Source: an uncultured Chitinophaga sp. (lineage in GTDB: Bacteria > Bacteroidota > Bacteroidia > Chitinophagales > Chitinophagaceae). From it: DNA of 64,000 bases. A program made the translations under genes and the position numbers. Shown in pieces: positions 3,276-33,038 of the stretch. The DNA is taken from NCBI RefSeq assembly GCF_902168175.1, contig NZ_CABHOU010000103.1, positions 545 through 64,544 of the forward strand, written 5' to 3'. Below the pieces are notes generated by a model. It was not told the origin of the DNA. It saw only the letters and a list, made by a program, of their open reading frames with translations, and searched no databases. Each line of letters starts with the position of its first letter. Positions within the stretch are counted from its first letter, which is position 1.

Positions 3276-3872
3276 ATGGAAAAGAAGGCAGACTTTACCG
3301 GTACATTTTCTATTGATGCAATGCGGAGTGGAGATATGGCTGCGTTTAACAGCCTGTTCTCGCAATTCTATGCACCCCTTTGTTACTTCGCGGAAAAGAT
3401 ACTGGAAGATAAGTTTGCCGCCGAAGAAGTAGTGCAGGGGGTTATGATGACGGTATGGAACAAACGGGCGGACTTCGACGCCTTTCCTGCCCTTAAATCC
3501 TTTCTCTATATAAGTACCCGCAACGCCAGCCTTAACCACCTCGATAAGCTGCAACGGCAGCGCCAGCAGCAAAAGTTAATAGAGCAAAGCAGCCCGGTTT
3601 CTGAAGAAGTGATCCTCAGTTCCATATTCAGGGCGGAAGCCATGCGCGAAATATACCAGGCTATCGACAAACTGCCAGAGAAGTATCGGGTAATTATGGA
3701 ACTGGCCTATAAAGAAGAATTGAAAATCAACGAGATAGCAGAGAAGCTGGATATGCCGGTGAATACGGTGCATAAACAGAAGAACAGAGCCCTGTCGTCC
3801 TTAAAGAAACTTCTTTCTCATAAATCATTTCTCTTACTGCTGGCGGCTTTGAGCAACGATCAGCTATCCTGA
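3276..3872 (+). CDS. ECF RNA polymerase sigma-70 factor (Bacteroidetes PUL type)
   Basis: Region 2 (LFSQFYAPLCYFA...AEEVVQ...LKSFLYISTRNASLNHL) and region 4 HTH (EIAEKLDMPVNTVHKQKNRALSSLKK); sits directly upstream of a fecR homologue. Confidence 0.93.
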   Translation: MEKKADFTGTFSIDAMRSGDMAAFNSLFSQFYAPLCYFAEKILEDKFAAEEVVQGVMMTVWNKRADFDAFPALKSFLYISTRNASLNHLDKLQRQRQQQKLIEQSSPVSEEVILSSIFRAEAMREIYQAIDKLPEKYRVIMELAYKEELKINEIAEKLDMPVNTVHKQKNRALSSLKKLLSHKSFLLLLAALSNDQLS

Positions 3873-3948
3873 GAAAAAATATTTTATTCTTTTTGTCCAA
3901 AAACGGGATTGAGTTCTGTTTTAATATGGATATACGGCTATTCCAAAG

Positions 3949-5121
3949 ATGAATGATCAAGAATTGCAAACAGCGTTAAAGATGGCGGGGCTCATGCCCG
4001 GTTATCTTACTAATACCCTTACCCCGTTAGAAAGGGAAGCGTTGGAGGCATGGATGGCAGCCAGCGACACTAACCGCAAAGCGGTGGAAAGCCTGCTGAA
4101 CGAAGATCAGGCGTTAGCGGAGTGGCGGATGATGGAGAAGTACAGGCTGAAGAAACCGGCAACGGTAAAAGCTATATCGCCCGTACCCGTGCGTAACAGG
4201 CAAATATGGTGGGCCCAGGCGGCAGCGGTTGCGCTGGTAGTTATTGGCAGCACCACGGCGATATGGGTAAATAACACGAAACCGGCTACCACACCCGTGG
4301 CGGCAATAGCGGAAGTGTTGCCTGGCAGTACCAAAGCAAAACTGGTACTGCCGAACGGTGAAACGCTTTCGCTGGACGAATCCAGCGATACGGCCTTCAT
4401 GCAGGGGCAGGCAGTGCAGGTGCAGCAACACCAGGGGAACCTGGCTTACGAACAGTTGACGGGAGAAACGGATGAAGTAATCTATCACAAACTCATCACC
4501 CCCAAAGGCGGCGAGTTTAAAGTGAGACTGGAAGATGGTACGCTGGTTTGGCTGAACGCCGCTTCATCTATCCGTTACCCGACAAAGTTTACCGGCAGTA
4601 CACGTACGGTGCAGGTAACAGGGGAGGCCTACTTCGAAATAGCAAAGGATGCGGAACATCCTTTTATCGTGGAAGTAAACGATTTTACTGCTATAGAAGT
4701 GCTGGGTACCCACTTTAATGTAAATGCTTATACAGACCAGGAACATATATATACAACACTACTGCAAGGCGCAGTAGCCGTTACTGCCGGCGCAGAAAGG
4801 CGACGATTGTCGCCAGGCCAGCAGGCCATTGTAAACCACCAGCCTAACAGTCCTGTAAATGTACAGGCGGCCGACACTATCCGGGCCGTGGCGTGGAAAA
4901 ATGGAGAGTTCGATTTTAACGATGCGAAATTGTCGGATGTCATGCGGCAATTATCAAAGTGGTACGATGTTACCATTACTTATGAACCAGGCGCCCCCGA
5001 TATTAAGATATGGGGAAGAATGAAAAGAAACCAAAATCTGCAACAAGTAGTTGCCATCCTGAACGCAATGGATGTAAAAGTTAGACTGGAAGAAGGACGG
5101 AAACTATCCGTGTTACGTTAG
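3949..5121 (+). CDS. FecR-family anti-sigma factor
   Basis: Single TM segment, FecR core (TPKGGEFKVRLEDGTLVWLNAASSIRYP, GEAYFEIAKD, VLGTHFNVNAY) and a C-terminal DUF4974-like region (AWKNGEFDF). Confidence 0.95.
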   Translation: MNDQELQTALKMAGLMPGYLTNTLTPLEREALEAWMAASDTNRKAVESLLNEDQALAEWRMMEKYRLKKPATVKAISPVPVRNRQIWWAQAAAVALVVIGSTTAIWVNNTKPATTPVAAIAEVLPGSTKAKLVLPNGETLSLDESSDTAFMQGQAVQVQQHQGNLAYEQLTGETDEVIYHKLITPKGGEFKVRLEDGTLVWLNAASSIRYPTKFTGSTRTVQVTGEAYFEIAKDAEHPFIVEVNDFTAIEVLGTHFNVNAYTDQEHIYTTLLQGAVAVTAGAERRRLSPGQQAIVNHQPNSPVNVQAADTIRAVAWKNGEFDFNDAKLSDVMRQLSKWYDVTITYEPGAPDIKIWGRMKRNQNLQQVVAILNAMDVKVRLEEGRKLSVLR

Positions 5122-5219
5122 TACGCATTTGAAGCTTTAGAGAACATATTGCAGCCCGAAAGAGGGTTGTAAGGCTTGTATTGACCATTATTTACCAACC
5201 AAGATCAAACATTTGTACT

Positions 5220-8200
5220 ATGCGATTAATTGCCTTCATGCTGTTTGCATGTGCACTAAGTTGTAGCGCCATGGCACACGCCCAGCGTATTACATTTTCC
5301 GGTACAAAGGTGCCCTTACAAGAGGTACTCACGGAAGTGCAGAAACAAACCGGCTACCTTGTTATGAGCAACAGCCAGCTCATTAAAGAAGCTCCTCCTG
5401 TGACCATCACGGCGTCGCAGCAGCCACTTGTAACGTTCCTCGACGAACTGTTTAAGGGGCCGAAACTCGAATATGCTATTGAGAACAAAACGATTACTAT
5501 CCGCAGAAAGAAAGTCAATGTGCTTCCCTTTTTACCAGACACTGCACGCCTTCCGCAGAAAGACATTATTGGTACGGTAACCGACGAAGCAGGACAACCT
5601 ATTCCGGGTGTTACAGTTCGTGTTCAGGGCCGTACTGGCGGTACTTCCACCGATGCGCAGGGGAAGTTCCGCATCAAGGCAGATACTACAGCCATACTGC
5701 ATATTTCGAGTATCGGCTATTTGCCGCGCGATTTGACCACGCCGGCCGTATTACGTTCATCACTGATCCGACTTGCTCCTGCAGCCAATAACCTGGAGGC
5801 AGTATCGATCGTAACTACTGGTTATCAAACCAGGAAACAGAGCCAGCAGGTAGGCTCTATTACTTCTGTAAAGGGAAAAGACCTGGAGAACTCCGGTATT
5901 ACTACGTTCGATAAAGCCCTGGCAGGAAGAATGCCAGGCGTATACGTACGCAGCGTATCGGGCCGGCCGGGCGAAACAGGGCAGATCATCATCCGTGGCG
6001 TTAACACGCTTACGGGTAACGTGGAACCGCTGTACGTACTGGACGGTATGCCGCTACAGCCTGGTGAAGTGAGCGGTAGCATGAATACGCTCATCACCAA
6101 CGGTATCGGTAACATCCCCCCTGAAAATATAGAAAGCATCACCATCCTGAAAGATGCGACGGCAGCGTCCATTTATGGTTCCCGAGCAGCTAACGGGGTA
6201 ATTGTAATTACCACTAAAAGCGGTAAGGTGGGTAACGACTATGTAAACTATACTGGCAAATATGGTATCACCGAACGTCCGCAGAACAACTTCAGCTTCA
6301 TGAACTCGAAAGAGAAAGTGGCGTTTGAAAGGGGCCTCAGGGATGACTTTTATCCCCCGTATGAATCGGGTGGCCGTGTTATCCAGCTGCTTAGTCTGGC
6401 CGACAAAGGTGCCATTTCACAAGCTGATGCAGAAGCGCGGATCGCAGAACTGGAACAAACGAATACCGACTGGATCAAACAATTGTACCGCGTGGCACAG
6501 AGCCAGTCGCACAACATCAGCCTGAGTGGTGGTAATACAAAAACCACTTACTATGCCGGTTTCAACTACCAGGAGTCACAGGGTAGCCTGATCGAGAACA
6601 AGTTCCAGACTGGCGGGTTGAATATGAAGCTCTCCCGTTATGCAACGGACAAGCTGCTGTTTAAGGTAAACCTGTACACCACACTGAAAAAGAACCAGGA
6701 GGGTCAGGCAGGCCTCGACCCCTTTAAATATGCGGTGTTCGCCAATCCGTATGAGAAGCCTTATAATGCAGACGGTTCCTACGCATCAGATATGACCTAC
6801 CGCGCTATTCCTTATGATATCGGGAACAACAGTACCCTGTATTACTCTACGTTCAATATGATCCGCGAGTTGAAGGAAAACCGGCTTACTAACATGTATG
6901 GCAACATACGTGGACAGTTTGCAGTGGAATACGATTTCCTGAAACACTTTAAATACACGGGTAACGTTGCAGCGTCTTACACTTCGGTGCATGATAAGGA
7001 CGAATCGTTTGGAGGCACGTACCGCTCATGGGCCAACAACTGGCTAACCGCAGCGTCTACGGGTGGAGGCGTACTGCCTGAGCATAACCGTGGTTACCTG
7101 CAGGAAAATACAGGTCGCACCTTCGATTATACGGTGCGTAATACGCTCGAGTACAACAATACGATTGCAGGGAAACATTTCGTGCAGGCGTTTTTTGCGA
7201 ATGAATTCGGCGCCATTAAAAACGACCAGTTCATGCACTTCAATCCTATCTACCTGCAGGAGTATGCCATCGCCGGCTATCCCAGCTGGGACCTGGTGGC
7301 GGATACGCGCTTCATGAGTCTGAATTTAAGCAGGTTCGGTAATACCAAAACATCAGAGAACAGGAGCGCCTCCTTTATCGGCTCGCTCGTGTACTCGTAT
7401 GACAACCGCTACGTGTTTAACGGTAATATTCGTTACGATGGCGTAGATATTATCGGCTCCGAAAATCAGTTCTCTCCGTTATGGTCTGCCGGTGTTCGGT
7501 GGAACGCGCAGAACGAGAAGTTCCTGATCGACTATCAGGACGTGATCAGCAGGCTGGTACTGTCGGCCGGTTACGGTTACCGCGGTAGTATTAACCGCAG
7601 TGTATTGCCTTTCCATACTTACGACCTCGGGACCGCCGTATACGCCAGCACACCTGTTGCTGCAATGTTCTATTATGGTAACCCGGTAATTAAGTGGGAG
7701 AAAAAAGGTGAAACGAACTTAGGATTGGAGCTATCGCTGTTTAAAGGTCGTGTGAATACAGAGTGGCGTTACTTTAACGAGAAAGTAACCGACCTGCTCG
7801 ATGATACCAAGATACCACCATCAACTGGCCGTTCGAGCACGAAAGTGAACGTAGGTTCTTTAAGCAACAAAGGACTGGAAGTGAGCCTGCGTATAGAAGC
7901 GATCAAAACAAAAGACTGGTTATGGGAAGTGAGCGGTAACATCACGAAGGTGAAGAATAACCTGACGAATGTATTCGAAAAGGAATATCCAACGCTGGCC
8001 AACAGTTATACTACCAACATAGAAGGATACCCGGTAAACAGCTGGTTCGGTTACAAATACGTTCGTGTAAACCCGGAGAATGGCAGCCTGATCGTACTGG
8101 CGCAGAAACGTAACGCTAAAGTGGTGGATGGTAAAGTTGAAACCTCCCTGGTAGATACCGAAGTAGACTTAAGCCGCACCGCCGTGGCCGATCTGCAGGC

Positions 8201-8723
8201 TAACTACCGCCCTTACTACCTCGGTCACCGTGACCCTGAGGTGTATGGTGGTTTTAATTCCCGTTTAACTTATAAGGCGATAGAGCTGACCGCCAACTTC
8301 GTATTTGCAGATGGCAACCAGATCGTTGGTTTCCGCGACAGGAGAGAAGGTCCTAGTGGCGCTAACAGCGACATCTTTACCAGCCGAACCAATCGCCTGA
8401 AGAAAAACCTGAACCGCTGGCGCCAGGTAGGTGATATTACCGATATCCCGGTATATCGCACCTCGTCTTCCAGTTATACCAACTACCTTATTTCTACCGA
8501 TATAGAAAGCGGCCGTTACCTGAAGTGTACAGAGCTGGCGCTGTCATGGCGCGCACCACGCAATCTGCTGGCACGTTCGAGCATGAAATCGCTGAAAGCG
8601 ACCATCGTAGCTTCCAACCTGTTAGCGTTAAGTCCGTACAGCGGTACCGATGCGGAAACGCAAACACCTTTCGGCTATCCTAACACACGCAGCTACACAG
8701 CATCCTTAACCGTTGGCTTCTAA
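5220..8723 (+). CDS. SusC/RagA-family TonB-dependent transporter with N-terminal STN signalling domain
   Basis: Signal peptide, STN-like N-terminus, CarboxypepD_reg-like domain, plug motif IESITILKDATAASIYGSRAANGVIVITTK, C-terminal Phe. The ATG at 5220 is preferred over the TTG at 5181 because of its A-rich initiation region. Confidence 0.95.
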   Translation: MRLIAFMLFACALSCSAMAHAQRITFSGTKVPLQEVLTEVQKQTGYLVMSNSQLIKEAPPVTITASQQPLVTFLDELFKGPKLEYAIENKTITIRRKKVNVLPFLPDTARLPQKDIIGTVTDEAGQPIPGVTVRVQGRTGGTSTDAQGKFRIKADTTAILHISSIGYLPRDLTTPAVLRSSLIRLAPAANNLEAVSIVTTGYQTRKQSQQVGSITSVKGKDLENSGITTFDKALAGRMPGVYVRSVSGRPGETGQIIIRGVNTLTGNVEPLYVLDGMPLQPGEVSGSMNTLITNGIGNIPPENIESITILKDATAASIYGSRAANGVIVITTKSGKVGNDYVNYTGKYGITERPQNNFSFMNSKEKVAFERGLRDDFYPPYESGGRVIQLLSLADKGAISQADAEARIAELEQTNTDWIKQLYRVAQSQSHNISLSGGNTKTTYYAGFNYQESQGSLIENKFQTGGLNMKLSRYATDKLLFKVNLYTTLKKNQEGQAGLDPFKYAVFANPYEKPYNADGSYASDMTYRAIPYDIGNNSTLYYSTFNMIRELKENRLTNMYGNIRGQFAVEYDFLKHFKYTGNVAASYTSVHDKDESFGGTYRSWANNWLTAASTGGGVLPEHNRGYLQENTGRTFDYTVRNTLEYNNTIAGKHFVQAFFANEFGAIKNDQFMHFNPIYLQEYAIAGYPSWDLVADTRFMSLNLSRFGNTKTSENRSASFIGSLVYSYDNRYVFNGNIRYDGVDIIGSENQFSPLWSAGVRWNAQNEKFLIDYQDVISRLVLSAGYGYRGSINRSVLPFHTYDLGTAVYASTPVAAMFYYGNPVIKWEKKGETNLGLELSLFKGRVNTEWRYFNEKVTDLLDDTKIPPSTGRSSTKVNVGSLSNKGLEVSLRIEAIKTKDWLWEVSGNITKVKNNLTNVFEKEYPTLANSYTTNIEGYPVNSWFGYKYVRVNPENGSLIVLAQKRNAKVVDGKVETSLVDTEVDLSRTAVADLQANYRPYYLGHRDPEVYGGFNSRLTYKAIELTANFVFADGNQIVGFRDRREGPSGANSDIFTSRTNRLKKNLNRWRQVGDITDIPVYRTSSSSYTNYLISTDIESGRYLKCTELALSWRAPRNLLARSSMKSLKATIVASNLLALSPYSGTDAETQTPFGYPNTRSYTASLTVGF

Positions 8724-8734
8724 ATTTATCAACC

Positions 8735-10285
8735 ATGAGAAAAAGTATTGCCTATATATTACTCTCTTCCCTGCTGATGATTTCGCAGGGTTGTAAAGAC
8801 TTCCTCGACCTGCCACCAAAAAACAAACGTACGGTGACGACGATCACCGATGTAAAATCGCTGCTGGGCTCTTACCTGCGCGGCGTGGCAGAGTTACGTG
8901 TAAAGCCGCTTTACGGCAGTGTATTGTGCATAGCGCCGCCCGCAGGCAACGTGCTGTTCGAATCTTATTCCGATAATATAGATTTTGAAACGGCCCTTAC
9001 GCAAACTTACCTGCAGCCGAATAACTACCATCTTAAATCGGAGTTAAGCTACGCTGATCTGCTGTTGTGGAATAACTTCACTACGCCGCAAACATTGTGG
9101 ACGCAGCACTACGAGATCATCGGCTTCCTGAACAGCCTCATCGACCAGTTAGAAGAGATCGAGGACGGTACAGAGCAGCAGCGCGATCAGATGCGGGGTG
9201 AAATGTTAGCGCACCGTGCGTATTACGTGTTCAAACTGTTGCAATACTTCGCTCCATATAACAAAGCAGAACAGGGCATTCCTGTATACCTGCATACCGG
9301 TCAAAGTACCATGGGTATTAAGATGTCGCGCAAAACGCATGCAGAGGTATATAAGATTATCCTGGACGATCTGAACGCGGCGCTGGAGTTAAATGCTAAA
9401 TCTGCTCCCCTGCAGGGCTTTAACGTGTTTTACAACAGTCGTTACCTGAATCACCTCCTGGCACAGGTATATTGGTTCAAAGCAGAATCACCTGCCAAAG
9501 AAGCCGATGACTATGCAAAGGTGAAAACCCACGCTGCAGCAGCGGCAGAAGGAACAGCAGCTGCTATTCCGACTACCACTACAACGATGATCAATGCTTA
9601 TGCTGGTAAAGATCCCAACTACCCGGCTATATGCGGAGAGAACAACTCCCAGGGCGCGGTAAGTGCCATTTATGGCTCCTGCTATCAGTACTTGTCGCCC
9701 GGCGCTTACGGCCCGGAGAACATTCCGCTTGCGGCCGATTTCGCTGCATTGTTTACGCCTGGTGATATACGTATCGCTGCTATCTTCAATAATGATGTTA
9801 CCCGTGCAGGTGGTAAAGTAGGTGTAGCAGGCAAAACGCTGAACTGGGGCTGGCCTTCCGATGGTACTGCCACGGGTTCACTGAAGCGTGGTAATGCAGC
9901 TATCTTTAAACCTGAAGAGGCTTATCTGTTACTGGCCGAAGCACAGTTCAGACTGAACGAAACCGGTGATGCGATCACTACGCTGAACGCCTTCAAAGCC
10001 TTGCGTAATGCGGGTACGGCTAATGGCCTTACTGGCGATGCATTGTTACAGGAAATCATCAACGAACGCCGTAAAGAGTTTTTTGGTGATAATGATAAAC
10101 GCTGGCTCGATCTGAAACGCTACCGCAATAAGACTATCACACGTAAGCTGATATTCTTCAACAAAACGTACGACCTCACTGTGGCTCCGGACGCGTATAA
10201 CTACGCCTTGCCCATTCCTTTAACGGAAGTGCAGGAAAACCCGGCCCTGGTGCCAAACGACGGATGGATAGCTATTGAATATTAA
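8735..10285 (+). CDS. SusD/RagB-family lipoprotein
   Basis: Lipobox Cys (SQGC), GEMLAHRAYYVFKLLQYF, EEAYLLLAEA, ERRKEFFG...RWLDLKR, LPIP..E...NP; immediately downstream of susC. Confidence 0.92.
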   Translation: MRKSIAYILLSSLLMISQGCKDFLDLPPKNKRTVTTITDVKSLLGSYLRGVAELRVKPLYGSVLCIAPPAGNVLFESYSDNIDFETALTQTYLQPNNYHLKSELSYADLLLWNNFTTPQTLWTQHYEIIGFLNSLIDQLEEIEDGTEQQRDQMRGEMLAHRAYYVFKLLQYFAPYNKAEQGIPVYLHTGQSTMGIKMSRKTHAEVYKIILDDLNAALELNAKSAPLQGFNVFYNSRYLNHLLAQVYWFKAESPAKEADDYAKVKTHAAAAAEGTAAAIPTTTTTMINAYAGKDPNYPAICGENNSQGAVSAIYGSCYQYLSPGAYGPENIPLAADFAALFTPGDIRIAAIFNNDVTRAGGKVGVAGKTLNWGWPSDGTATGSLKRGNAAIFKPEEAYLLLAEAQFRLNETGDAITTLNAFKALRNAGTANGLTGDALLQEIINERRKEFFGDNDKRWLDLKRYRNKTITRKLIFFNKTYDLTVAPDAYNYALPIPLTEVQENPALVPNDGWIAIEY

Positions 10286-10301
10286 CGGTTAAACGCATTA
10301 C

Positions 10302-11576
10302 ATGAAAAACATCATCATAACATGTACCATGCTGGCGGCGGTTTTACTGGGCGCCTGCAAAAAAGATGGATTCAATTATAAAATGGTGAAAGCCACCCTG
10401 GAAGATGTAGACTCTGTGTACTTTTCCGCTACCGATAAAATGCTGGTAGCCGACGGGCAGGCGCGCCTCGACTTCATCGTGGAAGCTTACCGCAAGGTCA
10501 CGCTTTCTAACGGAAAAGATACGATGGCGTTCATCGATTACCGTGAACTGCCGGCTGGTTCTCTAAAATTGATAGAGGAAAGATCAGGTACCGAAGTAGG
10601 ACTTTCTTATTCTACCACCACGATCCCTTTTGATACCGTGAAGTTCCACGCGGAAATCGGAACTGTAAAGTCGGCCACCAAACCGGTAGCGCTCAGGCCA
10701 GTGCCCACACTCCCTGCGAAGGTGTATGTAGATGTGATCTTCCACGTGTGGGAACTTAATCCCACGCATGCATCTTACGATCCTATATCTTACCAGGCAG
10801 TACCTTACGATAAATTACAGGAAGCCATTACTTACATGAACAATGTGGTAAATAACAAAGTGGGGCACAGTCCGAACGGCGCTTCGGCCAACGTGGAGTT
10901 CCGCCTGGCTAAAAAGAACGCGGCTGGTCTTGCGCTGGCGCAGCCTGGTTTTAACAAGATCATTTACAGCGATAACATTAAAACCAACCCGCTGGCTACC
11001 AGCTTTGCGATGGCCGACTTTACGACCATCATCAACGCTACACCGGCGAGCTACATCTGGAACCCTAAAGAATTCCTGAACGTACACGTAATTCCGTGGG
11101 GCACCAACTATGCAATGGGTACCGCTTTTCCCGCAAAACAATTGCCTCCTGGTCAGGGCGAGGAGTCGATACTCGGCGTGGCCGGTGTGGCGGCTAACGA
11201 TAACGACTTTGCCCTTACATACGCCGCTGCATGCGTTGGTTTTCCACGCACAGTGTTCTTCCCCGGCTTTGAGCGTAAACTGGAAGCGTTCCGTTACATA
11301 GGTTCGTTTTACGGCCTGTACACGCCCACTTACACGGCTACCCGGCTGTACTCGGATTTTTGCTATGATACGCGCAAATTCGATGGGCTGGATACCAGAA
11401 ACAGCTACTCATTCGCCACCAAGGTGGGCATCGACAATGAAAAATACATCACAGATAATGCTATGGACGATATCCGTTATCCCACACTGCTGACCTCTAT
11501 CACTGTAGACCAGGTGAAGAGAATGCGGGCGGTGATGGCGCGTTGTCCTGGTAGAATGAACGGTAAAATCCAATAA
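10302..11576 (+). CDS. Lipoprotein with M43 (pappalysin-like) metallopeptidase fold lacking the zinc-binding motif
   Basis: Lipobox LGAC. M43-like landmarks DVIFHV, NVEFRLA, WNPKEFLNVHV, SDFCYDT, NAMDD (Met-turn position) and TVDQVKRMRAVM. The HExxHxxGxxH position reads RYIGSFYGLYT (11292-11324). Confidence 0.75.
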   Translation: MKNIIITCTMLAAVLLGACKKDGFNYKMVKATLEDVDSVYFSATDKMLVADGQARLDFIVEAYRKVTLSNGKDTMAFIDYRELPAGSLKLIEERSGTEVGLSYSTTTIPFDTVKFHAEIGTVKSATKPVALRPVPTLPAKVYVDVIFHVWELNPTHASYDPISYQAVPYDKLQEAITYMNNVVNNKVGHSPNGASANVEFRLAKKNAAGLALAQPGFNKIIYSDNIKTNPLATSFAMADFTTIINATPASYIWNPKEFLNVHVIPWGTNYAMGTAFPAKQLPPGQGEESILGVAGVAANDNDFALTYAAACVGFPRTVFFPGFERKLEAFRYIGSFYGLYTPTYTATRLYSDFCYDTRKFDGLDTRNSYSFATKVGIDNEKYITDNAMDDIRYPTLLTSITVDQVKRMRAVMARCPGRMNGKIQ

Positions 11577-11587
11577 AACCACTGATA

Positions 11588-12730
11588 ATGAAAAAACTAT
11601 TATTGCTTGCCATAGCCGGTTTACCCGTACTGATGGTACAAGCGCAGGAAAAAAGCTTTACGCTGCAGGGTAAGATCGACGATATCGGCGAGCCGGGAAA
11701 AGTAATACTGGCGTACAGCGCCGGTGGCAAGAGAATTTCTGATACTGCAACGCTGACAGCAGGTGCGTTCAGTTTTGCCGGAAAGATAGACCAGCCAAAC
11801 AGAGCCATGATAACCTTGTTAAAGTCCAGTGCCAATCCGAGAATGGGTTTAGGCATGGGGTATGGCGGTGAGATTATCGGTCGCGATGGTGTGCAGTTCT
11901 TCCTGGACGAAGGGGCGATTACCTTCCAGGGTAAAACCATCAAGGAAGCTGCCATCAAAGGTTCTGCTGCTCAGAAAGACTACGAAGCGCTAACCCTGGC
12001 GCAAAAGCCCGTGGTAGATAAACTGACCGCGATCAATGCGGAGATGGGAAAACTGGCGAAAGACAGGGAGTCGGAGGAGTACAAAGCCCTCTACAATAAA
12101 CTGCTGGCTACAATGAAAGAGAACGCGCCGGTGCAGGCAGAATTTATCCGCACGCACCCCGACAGTTGGGTAGCCTTCAGTGAACTCACCAGCAAAAGCA
12201 TTATCAGCAATCCTGCGCAAACACAGGAGCAGTTTAAGGGCATGTCGGCCAGGTTGAGGAATAGCGAAGAAGGTAAGAAGTTCGAAGCCCGTATTAAAAG
12301 CGCTTTTGCCACGGCAATTGGTGCTGTAGCGCCTGCGTTTAGCCAGGACAATACCGAGGGTGCTGCCGTTTCGCTGGCTTCCCTGCGTGGTAAATATGTA
12401 CTGATCGACTTTTGGGCCAGCTGGTGCGGACCATGCCGTGCAGAAAACCCTAATGTTAAAATTGCTTACGACAAGTACAAAAGTAAGAACTTCGAAATTC
12501 TTGCCGTATCATTGGACAAAGAGAAAGCGCCATGGATAAAAGCGATTGCCGACGATGGTTTGCCATGGCTGCATGTAAGTGATTTAAAGGGATGGGATAA
12601 CGTGGTGGCGAAACTGTACAACGTTCGCGCTGTGCCTCAGAACTGGCTGATCGATCCTAACGGTGTAATTATCGCCACCAATATGCGCGGTAAAGAACTG
12701 GAAGACAGGTTGGAAAAGGCATTAAAATAA
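11588..12730 (+). CDS. TlpA/AhpC-TSA family thiol-disulfide oxidoreductase with DUF4369-like N-terminus
   Basis: Signal peptide; LIDFWASWCGPCRAENP active site; AVPQNWLIDPNG cis-Pro loop. Confidence 0.92.
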   Translation: MKKLLLLAIAGLPVLMVQAQEKSFTLQGKIDDIGEPGKVILAYSAGGKRISDTATLTAGAFSFAGKIDQPNRAMITLLKSSANPRMGLGMGYGGEIIGRDGVQFFLDEGAITFQGKTIKEAAIKGSAAQKDYEALTLAQKPVVDKLTAINAEMGKLAKDRESEEYKALYNKLLATMKENAPVQAEFIRTHPDSWVAFSELTSKSIISNPAQTQEQFKGMSARLRNSEEGKKFEARIKSAFATAIGAVAPAFSQDNTEGAAVSLASLRGKYVLIDFWASWCGPCRAENPNVKIAYDKYKSKNFEILAVSLDKEKAPWIKAIADDGLPWLHVSDLKGWDNVVAKLYNVRAVPQNWLIDPNGVIIATNMRGKELEDRLEKALK

Positions 12731-12736
12731 CGCATC

Positions 12737-13873
12737 ATGATAAAGAAACAACCATTAGTGCTGGGGCTCCTGTTATTAGCAGGTAGCGTATCAGCACAAA
12801 AAACACTGGTAATAACCGGTAAGTTTACCGGCGATACCAAAGGCTTTAACCAGGTGTACGTATATGGTACCGGCGTTAAAAGCGATTCTGCTTTGATGAC
12901 GGACGGTAAATTCACGTTCACCCTGCCATTCGATAAGCCTTTTATGCCGCTGTTTTACACGGAGTACGATAAAAGCGTGAAGCGAATGTACGCCCCCTTT
13001 GCCGTACTGGCCGACCAACCGGGTACCATTACGCTCAGCGATGGCGACATCAGCAAAGGTATGAGCAGCTTTACGGTGTCGGGGCTCGAAAGCGCCACGC
13101 TTTTTTCGGAGTACCGTAAAAAGCAGAACGAAATGTATGTAACCGTTAACCAGGCAATAGGAGAGAAGTACGGCAAAAACTGGTACGACGCGAAAAACAA
13201 TACGCAGCATAAAGAGGCGAACGAAGCGCAACAGGCTGCCATACAAGCCGGCAACCTGAAGTTGGTGGAAGCATTCATCAATGCACATCCCGACTCTTAC
13301 GCCACGGGTTACATCCTCAGTGGTGCCCGCACTGCCATCGATGTAGCTGATCTCGAAAGGTTGTACAACAAGCTGTCTGCAAAAACAAAAGCTTCCGCCG
13401 AAGCTAAAAATGTAGGCGACTACCTCACCGGACTGAAAAAATCGGCTATTGGTGCTACGGTGGCGAACTTTACGTTGAATACGCCGCAGGACAAACCTTT
13501 TGCTTTTTCCGAACTGAAAGGCAAATATGTAATGATCGACTTCTGGGCCAGCTGGTGCGGTCCCTGCAAACAGTCGTTCCCGCATATGAAAGAAGTGTAT
13601 GCGAAGTACAAAAGCGACAAATTCGAGATCTACAGCATCTCCATCGACAAGGATAAAGCTGCCTGGCTCAAAGGGCTGGAAGATCAGCAACTTCCCTGGC
13701 TACAGTCGCTGGATACCAAAGGTATTTCGAGCAGCGGGTTCGCCGTAACCGGAGTACCCACTACTTTCCTGATTGATCCTAAAGGGAAAATACTGATGAA
13801 AGAAGTAGGATTCGAACCCGGTGGCAACAGTCCGCTGGAAAAGAAACTCGAAGAGCTGTTTGGCGCAAAATAA
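12737..13873 (+). CDS. Second TlpA-family thiol-disulfide oxidoreductase
   Basis: Signal peptide; MIDFWASWCGPCKQSFP; GVPTTFLIDPKG. Confidence 0.92.
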   Translation: MIKKQPLVLGLLLLAGSVSAQKTLVITGKFTGDTKGFNQVYVYGTGVKSDSALMTDGKFTFTLPFDKPFMPLFYTEYDKSVKRMYAPFAVLADQPGTITLSDGDISKGMSSFTVSGLESATLFSEYRKKQNEMYVTVNQAIGEKYGKNWYDAKNNTQHKEANEAQQAAIQAGNLKLVEAFINAHPDSYATGYILSGARTAIDVADLERLYNKLSAKTKASAEAKNVGDYLTGLKKSAIGATVANFTLNTPQDKPFAFSELKGKYVMIDFWASWCGPCKQSFPHMKEVYAKYKSDKFEIYSISIDKDKAAWLKGLEDQQLPWLQSLDTKGISSSGFAVTGVPTTFLIDPKGKILMKEVGFEPGGNSPLEKKLEELFGAK

Positions 13874-13893
13874 CCTGGAATAAATGCTAATGT

Positions 13894-13928
13894 AAGCGGC
13901 CGTACCTGCGAGGGGGCGGCCGCTTTTA
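13894..13928 (+). terminator. Intrinsic terminator closing the first SusC/D operon
   Basis: AAGCGGCCG (13894-13902) and CGGCCGCTT (13917-13925) followed by T residues. Confidence 0.75.
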
Positions 13929-14018
13929 GTTAGGTGGATGGGCCTGGCGGAATGCAGATTCGGTAAATAACACCATAAAATCCATGAATAATCTCATACC
14001 TGTGGTACTATTTCGCTT

Positions 14019-20775: not shown

Positions 20776-23448
20776 TTACTTCACCTTAAAGTCCAACACC
20801 GGCGCTTTTGCATTGAATGCTTCTGTACGCAGAAAAAATTCTTTCGGGCCGGCATCTTCTTTATCAAAGCTGATCGTTATCTTTTTCGATTCTCCGGGCA
20901 GGAGGTTGATAAAGTTATCGGAGTAGAACGCCGGACGAATGCTTTTGCCATTACCATCCTGTAATTTCAGTTGGGTAAAGAATGCGAGCGATTTGCCGGT
21001 ATTCGTCACCGTAACATCTATTTTGCCATTCACCTGCATGGTTGCCTTCACATTAAGCATGGTTTGCGGCAGTTCATTAATCGACTGAAATCCTGCGGTA
21101 GCAGGGCCGGTCATTGTCCAGGCGCCTTTGTATTCGTTGGTAGAACGCCAGTAAAATGCGTCAGACACCACATTGTCCTTCTCGTCTTTTAATATTAGTT
21201 TGATGAAGTGTACGGGGGAGATGTCCTGCGGGAAAACCAGGGTGATTGCGTCTTTCACCACACCATCGGCTGGAATATTGATGATCGCCTGCTGTATCGT
21301 TTTTCTTTCTGAATGGATGTCGTAGAGTTCTGCATAAACCGTGTAACCATCAAACTTGCTGCGGTAGTCGTTGTATACCGACACCGTATTCTTAAGATAA
21401 TCGAACTGGGCATGTAAGGGTTGCAGGCCGTTCTGTGAGTAATAAAGCGCCGCAGTTGGCTCCAGGCTCCAGTCGTACATACGTCCGCCGGTTTGCCTTA
21501 CCGGGCTGTTATGGTACCAGAACAGGAAGCCGGAAGCGAAACGATCGCCCCAGCCGAACTTATTACGGTTCCAAACCTCCCATATGGCGCGGTAGTTCAG
21601 CGCACCTACAAACTGGGCTTTCTTTGCAAATTCTTCTATAGAAGATGATGGCCCGAACTGGTCCACCGCCTCGCGATACTTCGTTGTTACCTGGTGAAAT
21701 CCACCCCCATCGAGGTAATTCCAAACACTGTCGTTAATCGGCCACAAGTCTTTGGCAGGCATCATCTCTCTTAAAGATTCCACCGTAGGCAGGCAGGGCG
21801 TGCCATACTCCGGGTTAAATCCATCCACACGACTGCCTCTGCGCGAAGCCGTGTTCTCGAAATATTGCATGGGGTTCTCGTATTTATACGGACTTCCATC
21901 ATGCACGCCGCAGCATTCCGATTGCATCTGGTAACCACGGCTGCTGTCGAGCGATTTGATAAGGGCAGCAGCGCCGGCTACCTCCGTAGATTCATTAGAG
22001 GAAACATAGTAGGCGAGGGAGGCGTGCGGACGGATGCGTTTCACCGTGTTCTCTATATTAGACAAATACAACGGTTTATCAACCGGGAACTGCGTGTCGC
22101 CCGTGATCCAGAACTCGGCCCATATCATTAAGCCTAACTCATCGCAGCGCTGGAAGAAGTAATCAGATTCCGTGATACCACCCGCCCAGAAGCGGATGAA
22201 ATTAAGCCCGCTCTGTCGCGTATATACAAGTTCCGCATTGGTGCGTTTACGCGAGTTCTGCAACATCGCCTCCGGTATCCAGTTCGTACCCCTGATAAAC
22301 ACAGGGTGCCCGTTCACCAGGAACCTCCGCGACGAATCCGGCGTTTTACGGTCGCTCGATATTTCACGGATGCCGAAAGTGCTGGTGCTGGTATGACTTA
22401 CGGCTTTATTTTGTATAAAGGAGCAGTTAAGATGATAAAGGAACTGATGCCCTTTATTGATAGGCCACCAAAGTTTGGGTGAACGGAAAGCCAGTTGGGG
22501 ATGCGTTTCCGGTGTAAACACTAGTGTTTTACGCTCTTTTGGCGCCAGCGAAACCTTTTGCTGTATGGTAATGCCATTTTCCGGTATAGTAGCCTGGAGC
22601 AAACCTTCCTGCATTTTGTCAGAAGCATTAGCTACTTCTACTGATATGGTTTCCCTTGAACTGGTAGTATCCGGCAATGGCAGGTCAGACACGACAAAAG
22701 GATGCTCAACCAGCACGTCGCCGGTAGTATAGAGTTCCACTTCCCGCCATATACCCGTATTCCTGTCGCGGATACCATCGGCGAAGGTGAAATCCCAGCC
22801 GGCGCTCATCAGCATCGTTACGTTTTTACCGATCATCCCATCTCCGCCGTTCTGGTTTTCGCCAGGTGCGCCATTACGCCGCTCTTTCTTAAGCCCGCTC
22901 TGCCCGGGAACGTCTACCGGGGTAATATTCACCGCTAATACGTTCTCTTTGTTACGAACGGCAATATTGGTGATATCGAAAGCCTGCGTATTAAACATCC
23001 CAGCCATATCGCCCAGCTTCTGTCCGTTCAGCCATATTTCTGCCCGGTAGTTAATGCCATGTAACCTGAGCCAAAGGCGTTTACCCGTTAAAGTGGCAGG
23101 CACCCTGAACGAATTCCGGAACCAGTAATGATAAAACTCCCGCCCGGCATCGGCCATATCCGGGATTTTGTGCAGTAACCGTTTATTGGCATCCCCGAAA
23201 TACGGGTCCGGATATACCTTATTGGCTACCAGCGAAGTAAGCACCGTTCCCGGTACAATCGCGGGCTGCCAGCCATCCGGCTTATAAGTTTTAGTAGATA
23301 TCGTTTCCCCGCCGGCACCGGCTTTCGGGAAATGCTGCATCTGCCAGCCCTTGCCCAGGAACACGGACTGTGGCGAAGAGGGCGCTGCAAGCTGTGAGAA
23401 TGCGTTCAGCGTAGTAAATAGAAAACCCAGAAGGATGGAGTACCTCAT
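20776..23448 (-). CDS. Glycoside hydrolase family 2 (beta-mannosidase/exo-beta-glucosaminidase-like branch), secreted
   Basis: Signal peptide, LHGINYRAEIWLNG, FGIRE, VNGHPVFIRGTNWIP, RFWAGG, acid/base SNE, nucleophile region NPEYGTP, C-terminal Ig domain (YSDNFINLLPGE). Confidence 0.88.
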   Translation of the reverse strand: MRYSILLGFLFTTLNAFSQLAAPSSPQSVFLGKGWQMQHFPKAGAGGETISTKTYKPDGWQPAIVPGTVLTSLVANKVYPDPYFGDANKRLLHKIPDMADAGREFYHYWFRNSFRVPATLTGKRLWLRLHGINYRAEIWLNGQKLGDMAGMFNTQAFDITNIAVRNKENVLAVNITPVDVPGQSGLKKERRNGAPGENQNGGDGMIGKNVTMLMSAGWDFTFADGIRDRNTGIWREVELYTTGDVLVEHPFVVSDLPLPDTTSSRETISVEVANASDKMQEGLLQATIPENGITIQQKVSLAPKERKTLVFTPETHPQLAFRSPKLWWPINKGHQFLYHLNCSFIQNKAVSHTSTSTFGIREISSDRKTPDSSRRFLVNGHPVFIRGTNWIPEAMLQNSRKRTNAELVYTRQSGLNFIRFWAGGITESDYFFQRCDELGLMIWAEFWITGDTQFPVDKPLYLSNIENTVKRIRPHASLAYYVSSNESTEVAGAAALIKSLDSSRGYQMQSECCGVHDGSPYKYENPMQYFENTASRRGSRVDGFNPEYGTPCLPTVESLREMMPAKDLWPINDSVWNYLDGGGFHQVTTKYREAVDQFGPSSSIEEFAKKAQFVGALNYRAIWEVWNRNKFGWGDRFASGFLFWYHNSPVRQTGGRMYDWSLEPTAALYYSQNGLQPLHAQFDYLKNTVSVYNDYRSKFDGYTVYAELYDIHSERKTIQQAIINIPADGVVKDAITLVFPQDISPVHFIKLILKDEKDNVVSDAFYWRSTNEYKGAWTMTGPATAGFQSINELPQTMLNVKATMQVNGKIDVTVTNTGKSLAFFTQLKLQDGNGKSIRPAFYSDNFINLLPGESKKITISFDKEDAGPKEFFLRTEAFNAKAPVLDFKVK

Positions 23449-23528
23449 AATGTAAAACGTGGTTGTAATTGAAGGTGCTAAAGATAATAGGTGGGTTGGA
23501 TATTTTTCGGTTTTTGGGATTAGCGGGG

Positions 23529-23823
23529 GCGTTTACGTGTCGGCGTGTTTTTTTACTGTAGCGAAGACTGGAGCGACGGGTTGCTTCGCTTCGCTCGCAA
23601 TGACGACCAAGTGGGATGATGTTCGGGGCTGTTGTTGAATCGATGCTGGCGTGCCGTAGATGCGTTTACGTGTCGGCGTGTTTTTTTACTGTAGCGAAGA
23701 CCTGTATGAATTTATACGAGCGTAAATTTTTATAAATTAGATCGTCGCGAGACGTATAACGCCGCATGTACGCTACTCTCCGCCGTCATTGCGAGCGAAG
23801 CGAAGCAACCCGTCGCTCCAGTC
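23529..23823. repeat. Composite REP/MITE-like element: 40-bp inverted repeats plus 40-bp direct repeats
   Basis: 23566-23605 is the exact reverse complement of 23784-23823 (CGTCATTGCGAGCGAAGCGAAGCAACCCGTCGCTCCAGTC). GCGTTTACGTGTCGGCGTGTTTTTTTACTGTAGCGAAGAC occurs identically at 23529-23568 and 23662-23701. Confidence 0.9.
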
Positions 23824-23863
23824 AAAAACGTTTAAATCAACGCTTATAATAAGGGCAAAGCAG

Positions 23864-24640
23864 CTACACCCCCCTTATCTCCCCCAACTTCTCCTGCACA
23901 TAAGCCGTTGGCGACATCCCAAACTGCTTCATGAAACTACGGCCAAAATGGTTCGGCGAGCCGAAACCAACGATCTCTGATACTTCGTACACCTTGTAGT
24001 TCCCTTCTGCGAGCAATGCTGCTGCCTTTTTAAGGCGTGTGATGTTGAGCAGCTCATTTGGCGTGAGGTTGGAGATGGATTTGAGTTTGCGGTAGAACGT
24101 AGGACGGCTCATGTTCATGATGGTAGCGATTTTTTTCACGTCGAGTTCTTCCTGGTCGAGGTTGTCGGAAATGACTTCGTGCAGATGTTCGAGAAATTGT
24201 TCGTCGTGGCGGGTATGGGCCATGCTTTTGATGTGGGTGAGGGGGGAGTTGGCGAAGTAGTCCCGTAGTTTGCTGCGGTTTTGCAGGAGGTTGGCTACCT
24301 GTACCTGCAGGTATTGGGGGGAGAAGGGTTTCTCTACGTACGCATCGGCGCCCAGTTCCAGGCCTTCGATGCGCGATTCCATGGTGTTTTTGGCGGTGAG
24401 CAGGATGATGGGGAGGTGACTGTGTTCGAAGTCGTTTTTGATGGTGCGGCAAAGCGTGAAGCCGTCCATGCCGGGCATCATGATATCGGAGATAATGAGT
24501 TGTACGCAATTGTTTTTTAGCAGGGTGAGGGCTTCCGGGCCGCTGCTGGCGGCAAGTACTTCATATTTCTCTCCAAGATCTTCTGCCAGGAAATCCAGGA
24601 TGTCTTTGTTGTCGTCTACGATCAATAAAACTGGTTTCAT
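23864..24640 (-). CDS. Response regulator with AraC-type HTH (REC-AraC half of a split hybrid two-component system)
   Basis: LLIVDD, LIISDIMMPGMDG, ILLTAK, KPF; C-terminal MSRPTFYRKLK and FGSPNHFGRSFMKQFG. Confidence 0.93.
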   Translation of the reverse strand: MKPVLLIVDDNKDILDFLAEDLGEKYEVLAASSGPEALTLLKNNCVQLIISDIMMPGMDGFTLCRTIKNDFEHSHLPIILLTAKNTMESRIEGLELGADAYVEKPFSPQYLQVQVANLLQNRSKLRDYFANSPLTHIKSMAHTRHDEQFLEHLHEVISDNLDQEELDVKKIATIMNMSRPTFYRKLKSISNLTPNELLNITRLKKAAALLAEGNYKVYEVSEIVGFGSPNHFGRSFMKQFGMSPTAYVQEKLGEIRGV

Positions 24641-24651
24641 ATTGCTGGTTT

Positions 24652-27600: not shown

Positions 27601-27831
27601 GTCTGCCTGGTTATGGCGGAATACCTTAAAAGTATAACCATCAAAACGGTTCAGTCCGTCCTTTGTCCCAAACCACATGAAACCTTTATGGTCCTGCAGG
27701 CAACAGATGGTGGCGTTGTTGGAAAGCCCGTTCTCAACTTGGTAATGGCGGAAGTTATAGGATTGCCCGTAAAGGCTGTGTACAAAAACAGCCAGTAACG
27801 TGGAAAGTAATATGTGGGTCCAGGGTTTCAA
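24652..27831 (-). CDS. Sensor histidine kinase with beta-propeller (Reg_prop) repeats and Y_Y_Y domain
   Basis: ENGLSNN...QDHKGFMWFGTKDGLNRFDG repeats, YAYVLEG, TM helix, H-box FFTNVAHEIRTPLTLI, NLFSNAIKF, GTGIGLAL; TTG start. Confidence 0.93.
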   Translation of the reverse strand: MKPWTHILLSTLLAVFVHSLYGQSYNFRHYQVENGLSNNATICCLQDHKGFMWFGTKDGLNRFDGYTFKVFRHNQADSTSIGSNFIHSIYEDGRGILWAGTEKGLYRYDASVEKFNQADKRVSGPVRDIKSDRHGRLWFIMGFTLYRFDPQSGQLDTFDTQGYFEATSICMTPSGHIWVSTRDGLLERYDEARNTFTGFDIFSHSPGAVSHWIEKIYCNSKGQIFVGTSNQGAKIFDSQTHSYKDIITYNEDKTALFARNFVEVSPEETWIATESGIYVYHTAAGKIINIRKKYNDPYSLSDNAVYSFWRDKEGGIWAGTYFGGINYFPNPLTPFAKYYPKMTGNAISGNIVREIKQDAAGNLWIGTEDAGLNKLDTATGLFTPYQPTGSRKNISYNNIHGLLVNGNEIWIGTFEHGLDVMDARTGQIIRHYSAGAGPHMMKSNFIYYLTKTGDGQILAGTTRGAYVYRNDGFDPLPNMPANNWYTYLLKDSYGVIWAATYGNGINYSSASEHGNLRQRPGDEKSLSSDRVTSVFEDSKRNLWFTTEDGLCLYNRNKRNFTTYTTEHGLPSNFTLSILEDDKSNLWVSTTRGLARFNPAAGKAVIYNSVHGTLGDQFNFNSAYKDATGRMYFGSVKGMISFHPDELKENEFAPPVYITGFQVFDKELRIGDNDSPLQNSVLYTKKITLPHDQSTISIDFAALSYAAPDMSEYAYVLEGQEKSWTYLARNRKAYFTELPPGDYLFKVKASVKPGVWNQETALAIKILPPWWASNAAYFAYFISTVLVISFGIKRYHEEVEKRNNRKYELLERAKEKEIFQAKIVFFTNVAHEIRTPLTLIKAPLEKVMTKATGMPDLMKFLHIMEKNTNRLVDLTNQLLDFRKTEINGYSLSFVKADIGAMLEETYYSFKPLADEKHTRFHLHLPPEQVYAYIDMDAFNKIIYNLFSNAIKFGDVFASVQLLPVDEGAENFSIRFSNDGPPIPAELQEKIFEPFYRMKDIKQPGTGIGLALSRSLAKLHNGSLYVEAHHQNVFLLTLPVHQATEFNLSVVHGVNGRKLSN

Positions 27832-27948
27832 ATCACTTTATTGAGATGATTTGGCGAAATATTGAAACAAAATGGCGTGCCGGATCAGATAATAATTGTC
27901 AATTTCACACTAACTAAAGTATTAAATATTCAATCAAAATCACGCGTT

Positions 27949-33033: not shown

Positions 33034-33038
33034 ATCAT

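Follow-up and report, generated by a model that had tools for sequence, protein, structure and literature searches.

ButCD of Bacteroides fragilis (PDB 8YPT/8YPU) imports BfUbb, a folded, disulfide-bonded protein of 8.8 kDa, and was proposed by its authors to be a protein-nutrient system (Tong et al. 2024, PMC11467351). Its locus comprises no glycan-degrading set and adjoins a gene for a metzincin-type ZnMc protein (PMC11467351). Another SusCD-type importer, RagAB of Porphyromonas gingivalis (PDB 6SLI and related entries), takes up peptides and is encoded in a locus free of CAZymes. In that system, proteolysis is left to secreted gingipains. Finally, SusC/SusD pairs placed behind an ECF-sigma/anti-sigma front end form the core of ECF-controlled Sus-like PULs, e.g. 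the host-glycan PULs of Bacteroides thetaiotaomicron.

Here we describe a locus from a 64-kb stretch of DNA of a soil Chitinophaga (hereafter, the window). Among solved structures, ButCD comes closest to both its SusC and its SusD, but ButCD has no adjoining ECF sigma/FecR or thioredoxin genes, whereas the window locus has both. Like RagAB, it comes without CAZymes; unlike RagAB, it combines sigma/anti-sigma control, a predicted accessory pseudo-protease and thioredoxins. With the ECF-controlled Sus-like PULs it shares the regulatory front end and the SusC/SusD core, but glycoside hydrolases, lyases and esterases are lacking, and the cargo genes code instead for the putative pseudo-protease and for thiol-disulfide oxidoreductases. 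Of the two marks of a Sus-like PUL, the adjacent susC/susD pair is present and co-located carbohydrate-active enzymes are absent. A literature search found no paper characterizing such loci.

Organization of the locus

The locus comprises seven genes, all on the + strand, which span positions 3276–13873 of the 64-kb window and, according to the ORF coordinates, lie 6–76 nt from their neighbors. This is the co-oriented unit of ECF sigma, FecR, SusC, SusD, M43-like and two TlpA genes described in the initial annotation, which also had it closed by a terminator and devoid of CAZymes. Indeed, when searched with Pfam and NCBIfam profiles, all seven proteins prove to lack glycoside hydrolase, PL and CE domains. 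Two CAZyme-rich PULs are present elsewhere in the window, one of them under FecR/STN control.

The first two genes encode an ECF-type sigma-70 factor of the Bacteroidetes subfamily (3276–3872, + strand; TIGR02985, 135 bits for a cut-off of 126; Sigma70_r2 and r4_2 domains) and a FecR-type anti-sigma factor (3949–5121, + strand; PF04773, 2.9e-19; PF16344 (FecR_C), 1.9e-14). They lie immediately 5' of susC, an order common to the orthologous loci, and a scan for terminator-like structures reports a small hairpin in the fecR–susC gap (5149–5172, + strand). The annotated start codon of susC is a TTG at 5181; an alignment with orthologous loci reveals a conserved in-frame ATG at 5220, preceded by a conserved AACCAACCAA about 25 nt upstream, and this ATG is more likely to be the susC start than the TTG.

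From susC to tlpA2, the intergenic gaps measure 11, 16, 11 and 6 nt. The last stop codon is followed by a GC-rich, terminator-like hairpin and then UUUU (13887–13933, + strand; MFE −27.7 kcal/mol, z = −4.0), the stability of which was matched by none of 200 shuffled sequences, and a sequence scan found no housekeeping-type promoter consensus within the locus. The tight same-strand packing (6–16 nt), the strong terminal hairpin and the lack of an internal promoter consensus suggest that susC to tlpA2 are cotranscribed as a single mRNA. Note that a simple terminator scan overlooks the terminal hairpin.

The SusC/SusD pair and its solved relatives

The SusC/RagA-type TonB-dependent transporter (5181–8723, + strand; TIGR04056, 621 bits; Plug and CarboxypepD_reg domains and an STN-like N-terminus) and the SusD/RagB-type lid lipoprotein (8735–10285, + strand; PF14322 (SusD-like_3) and PF07980 (SusD_RagB)) are encoded by adjacent genes separated by 11 nt. 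In the PDB, the top match of SusC is ButC (8ypu, 302 bits; the next best match scores 197 bits, and RagA 189 bits), and that of SusD is ButD (8ypt, E = 5e-17). The affinity for ButC is specific to the window SusC, being absent from two paralogs tested. More specifically, the closest solved structure is RagA for a TlpA-linked paralogous SusC, and a glycan SusC for a paralog devoid of a TlpA link. The likeness between SusC and ButC is remote, with about 300 bits across about 970 residues.

The two transporters also differ at their N-termini, where ButC has a different extension, the NTE domain, and the window SusC a putative signaling domain of the STN type. Residues 64–110 of SusC match the STN family PF07660 with an E-value of 2e-4 and a score of 21.5 bits, for a Pfam cut-off of 28.4. 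The STN matches of the orthologous SusC proteins are likewise faint, save for that of Carboxylicivirga, which is full.

An M43-like lipoprotein without a zinc site

The gene following susD encodes a lipoprotein (10302–11576, + strand; lipobox LLGAC) that combines an N-terminal Ig-like domain with a pappalysin fold, as indicated by its AF2 model (pLDDT 85) and Foldseek. The protein has no Pfam match, PF05572 included, above the gathering score, its more distant homologs match PF05572 only faintly, and its own match to TIGR03952 is weak (55 bits for a cut-off of 208). At the structural level, the Foldseek matches are to M43 pappalysins (probability 1.0; target-normalized TM-score 0.65–0.68), among them ulilysin (2cki, E = 2e-8) and mirolysin (6r7w), which reach 0.67–0.68; a profile match to mirolysin (E = 5e-12) and several shared structural landmarks point the same way.

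The M43-like label given in the initial annotation therefore stands for the fold but not for the zinc motif. HExxH is found neither in the window protein nor in any of its 96 homologs, the three zinc-binding histidines and the catalytic glutamate of HExxHxxGxxH being absent from all 96 family members, and the position of the zinc site is now occupied by a conserved E-I-F-x-F-I-G-x-F-Y-G-L-Y-T. Contrary to the view that it is a peptidase, the lipoprotein is thus, as judged from its sequence family, a conserved pseudo-metallopeptidase, predicted to be catalytically dead. Besides the zinc site, it differs from ulilysin and mirolysin by its lipid anchor, by the extra Ig-like domain and by being always encoded after susD, the SusD gene lying directly 5' in 40/40 loci. 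It also differs from the ZnMc protein of the ButCD locus, which is predicted to be active and is encoded upstream of butC.

Two secreted thiol-disulfide oxidoreductases

The last two genes encode TlpA1 (11588–12730, + strand; Pfam, NCBIfam and AF2) and TlpA2 (12737–13873, + strand; Pfam and NCBIfam), both secreted DUF4369–TlpA thiol-disulfide oxidoreductases. TlpA1 is composed of a DUF4369 β-sandwich, a helical bundle and a TlpA/ResA thioredoxin domain. The Pfam matches of the pair comprise AhpC-TSA, Redoxin and Thioredoxin_8. With the AF2 model of TlpA1 (pLDDT 90), Foldseek retrieves 4grf, 3fw2, 3fkf and ResA, with an rmsd of 1.5–1.9 Å to ResA and 4grf. As stated in the initial annotation, both exported proteins contain WCGPC, the canonical thioredoxin motif; both have signal peptides, which lack a lipobox cysteine as read from the sequence itself rather than by a dedicated predictor. 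Orthologs in related loci score 376–597 bits for TlpA1 and, in Chitinophaga and Sphingobacterium loci, 238–554 bits for TlpA2. TlpA1 and TlpA2 are only 29% identical, suggesting that their duplication is old.

With the TlpA/ResA/CcmG family, both proteins share the thioredoxin fold, CxxC, secretion and a genome that supplies a DsbD/CcdA-type electron donor, and the likeness in fold extends to Bacteroides structural-genomics domains (rmsd 1.5–1.9 Å). However, the known members of this family have apocytochrome c, ScoI or CoxB as their substrates, whereas some 30 copies are tied to SusCD operons here; in addition, the window copies carry the DUF4369 β-sandwich, the helical bundle and the thioredoxin-like dipeptide of WCGPC. 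The genome encodes a single DsbD (DsbD_TM gene, 669-aa frame), and neither DsbB nor VKOR is detectable in it. Taken with the WCGPC motif and the secreted location, this redox setting fits a predicted reductive role for TlpA1 and TlpA2.

Conservation in Bacteroidota

The cluster is real and widely conserved in Bacteroidota. A survey of gene neighborhoods for co-occurring susC/susD, TlpA and M43-like genes, as suggested in the initial annotation, shows that 38 of 40 loci, drawn from four orders, have the SusD gene followed by the pseudo-M43 gene and then by one or more thioredoxin-fold genes, in taxa that include Chitinophaga, Pseudobacter, Pedobacter, Sphingobacterium, Tamlana, Carboxylicivirga and a Bacteroidales MAG, and sigma–FecR–SusC lies 5' of the cluster in every locus with a long enough flank. 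Variants of the cluster occur as well. Ginsengibacter-type loci have an M1 peptidase gene (HEIMH; PF01433, 2.5e-19) between the pseudo-M43 and TlpA genes, Carboxylicivirga and Tamlana loci encode a trypsin-like peptidase 3' of the thioredoxin gene, and the thioredoxin itself is of the TlpA type in some orthologous loci and of the Thioredoxin_7/DsbH type in others.

Proposed function and alternative explanations

The best-supported reading, to which we give a probability of roughly 40%, is that the locus encodes an ECF-sigma/anti-sigma-controlled SusCD importer of the ButCD/RagAB kind, serving a small protein or peptide rather than a glycan, and that this disulfide-bonded, non-glycan cargo is reduced in the periplasm. 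At the cell surface, where the pseudo-M43 lipoprotein is putatively located, this lipoprotein, the presumed ligand-binding partner of SusCD, would seize the ligand together with SusD, a protease-derived binder thereby taking the place of the surface glycan-binding proteins of classical PULs. Ligand bound to SusC would signal through STN to FecR and the ECF sigma factor, switching on susC–tlpA2 as a single transcript, and SusC would import the ligand in a TonB-driven manner. In the periplasm, soluble TlpA1 and TlpA2 would use their WCGPC motifs to reduce the disulfides of the cargo, leading to its unfolding, degradation or onward transfer, with the single DsbD holding both proteins in the reduced state. 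In this scheme, the nature of the cargo, the redox direction and its target are what we infer. Since the accessory pseudo-M43 is predicted to be unable to cleave, the locus would have no protein-breakdown enzyme of its own.

The claim that the cargo is non-glycan and probably proteinaceous gains partial support. The affinity for ButC and ButD, the closeness of a TlpA-linked paralog to RagA, the protease fold of the lipoprotein, the variants with M1 or trypsin-like peptidases and a sibling cassette of the genome that encodes an S41 tail-specific protease are circumstantial evidence in its favor. On the other side stand the remoteness of the likeness to ButCD, the different N-terminal extension of ButC and its want of thioredoxin neighbors, the predicted inability of the accessory lipoprotein to cleave, and the paralogs of the locus, which had been treated as singular but is one of about 23 TlpA-ended SusCD cassettes in the same genome. 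The lipoproteins encoded in sibling TlpA-ended cassettes are either DUF4843/PKD-like or of the BT_3987-like_N and F5/8 type C kinds; lipoproteins of these kinds typically bind glycans or glycoproteins, and they speak against the protein-import reading; the BT_3987-like_N and F5/8 type C lipoproteins make a glycoprotein or other cargo possible. SusCD could thus import glycopeptides or glycans from disulfide-cross-linked glycoproteins, such as those of fungal or plant cell walls, with the enzymes supplied in trans, the pseudo-M43 acting as a plain surface binder and the thioredoxins loosening the peptide part. ECF/FecR/STN-SusC front ends do run true glycan PULs, including one in the window itself (44862–59578; GH109, GH89 and GH123), and a β-N-acetylhexosaminidase gene flanks the ButCD locus (PMC11467351). 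We nevertheless consider this explanation unlikely: CAZymes are absent both here and from the three orthologous loci for which precomputed Pfam listings exist (L001, L003 and L005), and the variant loci gain peptidases, not glycosidases.

The distribution of the thioredoxins raises another objection to the import-and-reduction reading. The genome contains about 30 thioredoxins linked to SusCD, and their CxxC dipeptides vary; generic disulfide reduction would hardly call for so many. They might instead be dedicated to the envelope proteins of their own cassette, assisting in maturation, repair or docking, for instance by controlling cysteines in the lipoprotein, in SusC or in SusD, or by serving as periplasmic receivers via DUF4369, in which case the chemistry of the cargo would be irrelevant. 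That every cassette comes with one or more thioredoxins, which vary in CxxC and carry a non-catalytic DUF4369 and helical module, suggests specific protein–protein pairing. Consistent with this idea, the SusCs of TlpA-ended cassettes, mostly FecR-linked, cluster in the SusC tree, on which TlpA linkage requires 12 changes compared to 21.3 in shuffles (none of 500 shuffles being as low). Likewise, cysteines C354 and C415 of the pseudo-M43 co-vary (C in 79/96 and 78/96 sequences, respectively), and a genome that has neither DsbB nor VKOR implies unusual envelope thiol management. Yet most of the about 96 other SusC genes of the genome manage without a linked thioredoxin, and thioredoxin types are interchanged among orthologous loci, as one would more readily expect if they shared a chemical task than if each were a lock-and-key partner. 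Both points render this explanation improbable as well.

Alternatively, the system could take up a small compound that is redox-active, contains sulfur or is bound to a metal (e.g. an oxidized thiol/disulfide metabolite, or a metallophore that must be released by reduction), under sigma/FecR/STN control as in FecIRA-type iron systems. The sigma/FecR/STN–TBDT arrangement is the classical siderophore-sensing design and TlpA-family proteins reduce metallochaperones such as ScoI, but we consider this explanation unlikely too: the transporter is of the SusC/SusD type, its affinities lying with ButCD and RagA, rather than a siderophore-type TBDT, the locus encodes neither a metal-binding partner nor one of the Sco, PepSY or reductase kinds, and related loci contain peptidases.

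If import of a disulfide-bonded protein is taken as the function of the window locus, the TlpA-ended cassettes as a whole might constitute distinct, ancient reductive protein-utilization loci across Bacteroidota, each with an importer, its own binder and its own reductase, a generalization that we regard as doubtful. Candidate cargoes would then be defensins, hydrophobins, bacteriocins and cell-wall proteins of fungi, plants or rival bacteria. Such loci would represent a second large modality of nutrient or antagonist uptake beside glycan PULs, and the surface binder of the window locus would be a domesticated, dead M43 protease.

Organization of the locus

All seven ORFs listed in the initial annotation are present on the + strand between positions 3276 and 13873, with exactly the coordinates it reported. 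They encode a Bacteroidetes-subfamily ECF sigma factor (3276–3872; TIGR02985, over its cut-off), a FecR/FecR_C anti-sigma factor (second gene; Pfam and NCBIfam), a SusC/RagA transporter (TIGR04056, 621 bits) with a CarboxypepD_reg domain, a Plug and a sub-threshold STN match (Pfam, E = 2e-4), a SusD-like protein (fourth gene; Pfam and NCBIfam), a 424-residue lipoprotein with no Pfam match (10302–11576), and two proteins of about 380 residues, TlpA1 (11588–12730) and TlpA2 (12737–13873), in which DUF4369 is combined with a TlpA/ResA-type thioredoxin domain bearing a WCGPC motif. From susC to the final gene, the ORFs are separated by 11, 16, 11 and 6 nt. The final stop codon is succeeded, 13 nt further on, by a GC-rich hairpin with a UUUU tail (−27.7 kcal/mol, z = −4.0; equal folding in none of 200 shuffles), in agreement with the closing terminator proposed earlier. 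Within the locus, no match to the Bacteroidetes housekeeping promoter consensus (TTTG-N-TAnnTTTG) was found, which is a weak test, and a sigma-70 promoter scan gave no more sites than in shuffled sequence.

The ORFs used in our scripts are the output of a simple caller. The susC ORF as given begins at a TTG (5181); in frame with it, at 5220, is an ATG that six orthologous loci share, as they do a AACCAACCAA element some 25 nt before this ATG. Position 5220 is probably the true susC start, in which case the fecR–susC gap is about 98 nt long; it contains a small hairpin (5149–5172).

The claim that the locus lacks CAZymes also holds: Pfam and NCBIfam detected a carbohydrate-active domain in none of the seven proteins. 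Since two ordinary glycosidase-rich PULs share the window, one of them likewise FecR/STN-SusC controlled, this absence is a trait of the locus and not of the genome. The classical ECF/FecR-type PUL (44862–59578, − strand), an internal contrast to the enzyme-free locus, comprises genes for FecR (58457–59578), an STN-SusC (54870–58307) and SusD (53006–54844), all on the − strand, together with a TIG/NHL lipoprotein, a beta-helix protein, GH109, GH89 (NAGLU) and GH123, a set of enzymes typical of host- or complex-glycan degradation. The second PUL (20776–35741) encodes a GH2 (20776–23448, − strand), a hybrid two-component-like sensor (24652–27831, − strand), SusC (27862–31134), SusD (31147–33033), a DUF3823 protein (33039–33719) and a GH51-type arabinofuranosidase (33750–35741). 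The gene for a 1126-residue protein with a C-terminal M1 peptidase domain (41485–44865, + strand) has a histidine-kinase/response-regulator pair on one side and the GH123 gene on the other.

A pappalysin fold without its zinc site

The AlphaFold model of the lipoprotein (pLDDT 85, pTM 0.83) consists of an N-terminal Ig-like domain and an M43-type domain, the latter having as top structural matches the M43 pappalysins ulilysin and mirolysin (Foldseek probability 1.0, target-normalised TM 0.65–0.68). A search of 5.8 billion proteins retrieved 98 homologues, from Chitinophaga, Pseudobacter, Parasegetibacter, Pedobacter, Sphingobacterium and Carboxylicivirga. The HExxH motif is absent from the window protein and from all 96 aligned homologues; the site matching the M43 HExxHxxGxxH position is instead a conserved E-[IL]-F-x-[FY]-[IV]-G-x-F-Y-G-L-Y-T, and in a PDB profile search the alignment with mirolysin is confined to the N-terminal sub-domain plus the C-terminal helix, skipping the active-site helix. 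Because the motif is missing and its site replaced throughout, the family, hereafter pseudo-M43, is one of dead proteases, and an active M43 peptidase can be rejected. The earlier description as an M43-like lipoprotein is right as regards the fold; the protein is a pseudo-enzyme. From its place right after susD and its lipobox, the simplest reading of pseudo-M43 is that of a ligand-binding partner at the cell surface. The residues behind its lipid cysteine (KKDGF) fit the published surface-export motif only loosely; surface exposure, like the signal peptides, was judged by eye.

Residues C354 and C415 of the family co-vary: they are cysteines in 79 and 78 of the 96 sequences, respectively, and are jointly swapped for V and S in about 15. 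This pattern points to a structural disulfide; the neighboring genes encode disulfide reductases.

Conservation of the cluster

Gene neighborhoods were compared in 40 loci, some redundant, 35 from species-representative genomes and five from exact-protein look-ups, annotated with HMMs built from the genome's own paralogues. Every one of the 40 has susD immediately 5' of the pseudo-M43 gene, preceded by sigma, fecR and susC wherever the flank is long enough, and 38 have one to three thioredoxin-fold genes downstream, of either the DUF4369-TlpA or the Thioredoxin_7/DsbH type, the two exceptions being loci L009 and L013. TlpA1 and TlpA2 each have orthologues that can be followed from one family to another. 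The arrangement must be old, since it is found in Tamlana (Flavobacteriales), in Carboxylicivirga and in a Bacteroidales MAG. Among diverged loci, those of the Ginsengibacter type have an M1 peptidase with a HEIMH motif between pseudo-M43 and the TlpA genes, and those of Carboxylicivirga and Tamlana a trypsin-like peptidase after the thioredoxin gene.

Redox direction of the thioredoxins

TlpA1 and TlpA2 have cleavable signal peptides in which, as read by eye, the lipobox cysteine is absent, and should therefore be soluble periplasmic proteins. In the three-domain TlpA1 model (pLDDT 90), a beta-sandwich and a helical bundle precede the thioredoxin domain; a fold search with the full model returned thioredoxin-domain matches only, with no informative solved relative for the DUF4369 and helical domains. 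When superposed, the thioredoxin domains fit ResA and Bacteroides structural-genomics domains at 1.5–1.9 Å, and their WCGPC motif holds the canonical thioredoxin dipeptide. The genome contains one DsbD and two DSBA-family ORFs, and no DsbB, VKOR or Thioredoxin_4-type DsbA is detectable in its assembly. Taken together, the motif, the ResA superposition, the single DsbD and the lack of detectable DsbB, VKOR and Thioredoxin_4-type DsbA favor a DsbD-fed reductive role, as predicted from sequence. A DsbA-like, oxidative role is disfavored, no DsbB/VKOR partner having been found, despite the two DSBA-family ORFs.

A candidate protein or peptide importer

Among solved structures, the locus SusC matches ButC best (8YPU, 302 bits; runner-up 197) and its SusD matches ButD best (8YPT, E = 5e-17). 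The affinity for ButC is specific to this SusC, since the two paralogues tested have other top matches: RagA for a sister TlpA-linked SusC (201 bits; ButC 104) and a glycan SusC for one without a TlpA link (273 bits; ButC 119). ButCD of B. fragilis imports BfUbb, an 8.8-kDa disulfide-bonded ubiquitin homologue, and adjoins a zinc-metalloprotease gene without glycan-degrading genes; its authors propose a protein-nutrient system whose native substrate is unknown (PMC11467351). The present locus likewise lacks glycan-degrading genes.

The best-supported reading, to which we give a probability of about 0.4, is that of a ButCD/RagAB-like importer whose cargo is a small protein or peptide: SusD and the dead-protease lipoprotein would capture the ligand, STN, FecR and the ECF sigma factor would sense it, and both thioredoxins would reduce its disulfides in the periplasm. 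It seems unlikely that the locus serves glycoprotein or glycan use, its enzymes being provided in trans. We similarly doubt that the thioredoxins attend to the envelope proteins of their own cassette or are specific partners in the periplasm. The number and diversity of cassette-specific thioredoxins, the main unexplained feature, are not well explained by simple generic reduction. It is quite improbable that the system takes up a small compound of a redox-active, sulfur or metal kind.

To our knowledge, SusCD systems are nearly always read as glycan importers, the only exceptions being the peptide importer RagAB and ButCD, a protein importer of unknown native role that has been hijacked, and only orphan structural-genomics structures exist for the DUF4369-TlpA family. 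If the cargo is disulfide-rich protein, such systems would be a large, unstudied means by which Bacteroidota of soil and gut acquire proteins or peptides, possibly also a toxin entry route, and would give the DUF4369-TlpA family a function; in the dead-protease lipoprotein, an enzyme fold would clearly have been recruited for binding. In the literature library searched, no paper characterizes a SusCD–thioredoxin locus; the one recurring match, PMC10434189, simply lists such genes in iron-stimulon tables. The locus is real and uncharacterized, and the sub-family with SusCD, dead M43 and thioredoxin is conserved across several orders.

Paralogous cassettes in the genome

The locus is a recurring variation on the SusCD theme, not a singular oddity: uniqueness is rejected by the 20–23 paralogous cassettes in the genome. 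The 6.65-Mb assembly contains 119 full-length SusC, 122 SusD and 68 FecR genes, 48 TlpA-like ORFs and 29 DUF4369 genes, compared with at most seven of the latter per genome in a sample of 80 others of the phylum. About one SusC gene in five (23/119) has a co-oriented gene for a secreted TlpA-like thioredoxin within 7 kb downstream, in place of glycosidases; this applies to 20 of the 55 FecR-linked SusCs versus three of the 64 others. In the SusC tree (FastTree topology, deep nodes weak), 17 of the 23 fall inside one 23-member clade, and TlpA linkage requires 12 changes versus 21.3 in shuffles (0/500 as low). The TlpA-linked SusCs group together phylogenetically and are mostly under ECF/FecR control.

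The genes found between susD and tlpA vary within the genome: a DUF4843 and a PKD-like lipoprotein in seven cassettes, BT_3987-like_N lipoproteins with or without F5/8 type C in others, an Mx1-like protein and an S41 tail-specific protease in another, nothing in some, and pseudo-M43 in the locus under study only. The envelope thiol chemistry of this aerobic soil bacterium looks unusual: one DsbD and two DSBA-family ORFs, with no detectable DsbB, VKOR or Thioredoxin_4-type DsbA, stand against 29 DUF4369 genes and 48 ORFs for secreted TlpA-like proteins.

One sibling cassette (contig C21, 183955–194489, − strand) encodes sigma, FecR, SusC, SusD, a lipoprotein with a weak Peptidase_Mx1-like match and no obvious HExxH seen by eye, an S41 tail-specific protease and two TlpA proteins (WCAPC and WCTPC); it is another protease-flavored, thioredoxin-ended SusCD operon. 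Yet another sigma–FecR–SusC–SusD operon is closed by a 779-residue ORF (contig C14, 849–3188, − strand) in which a DUF4369-TlpA module (WCGPC) is fused to a Thioredoxin_7/DsbH-type module (WCAPC) and a helical tail, a Rosetta-stone link between the two thioredoxin types that are separate neighbors in the Pedobacter orthologue of the locus.
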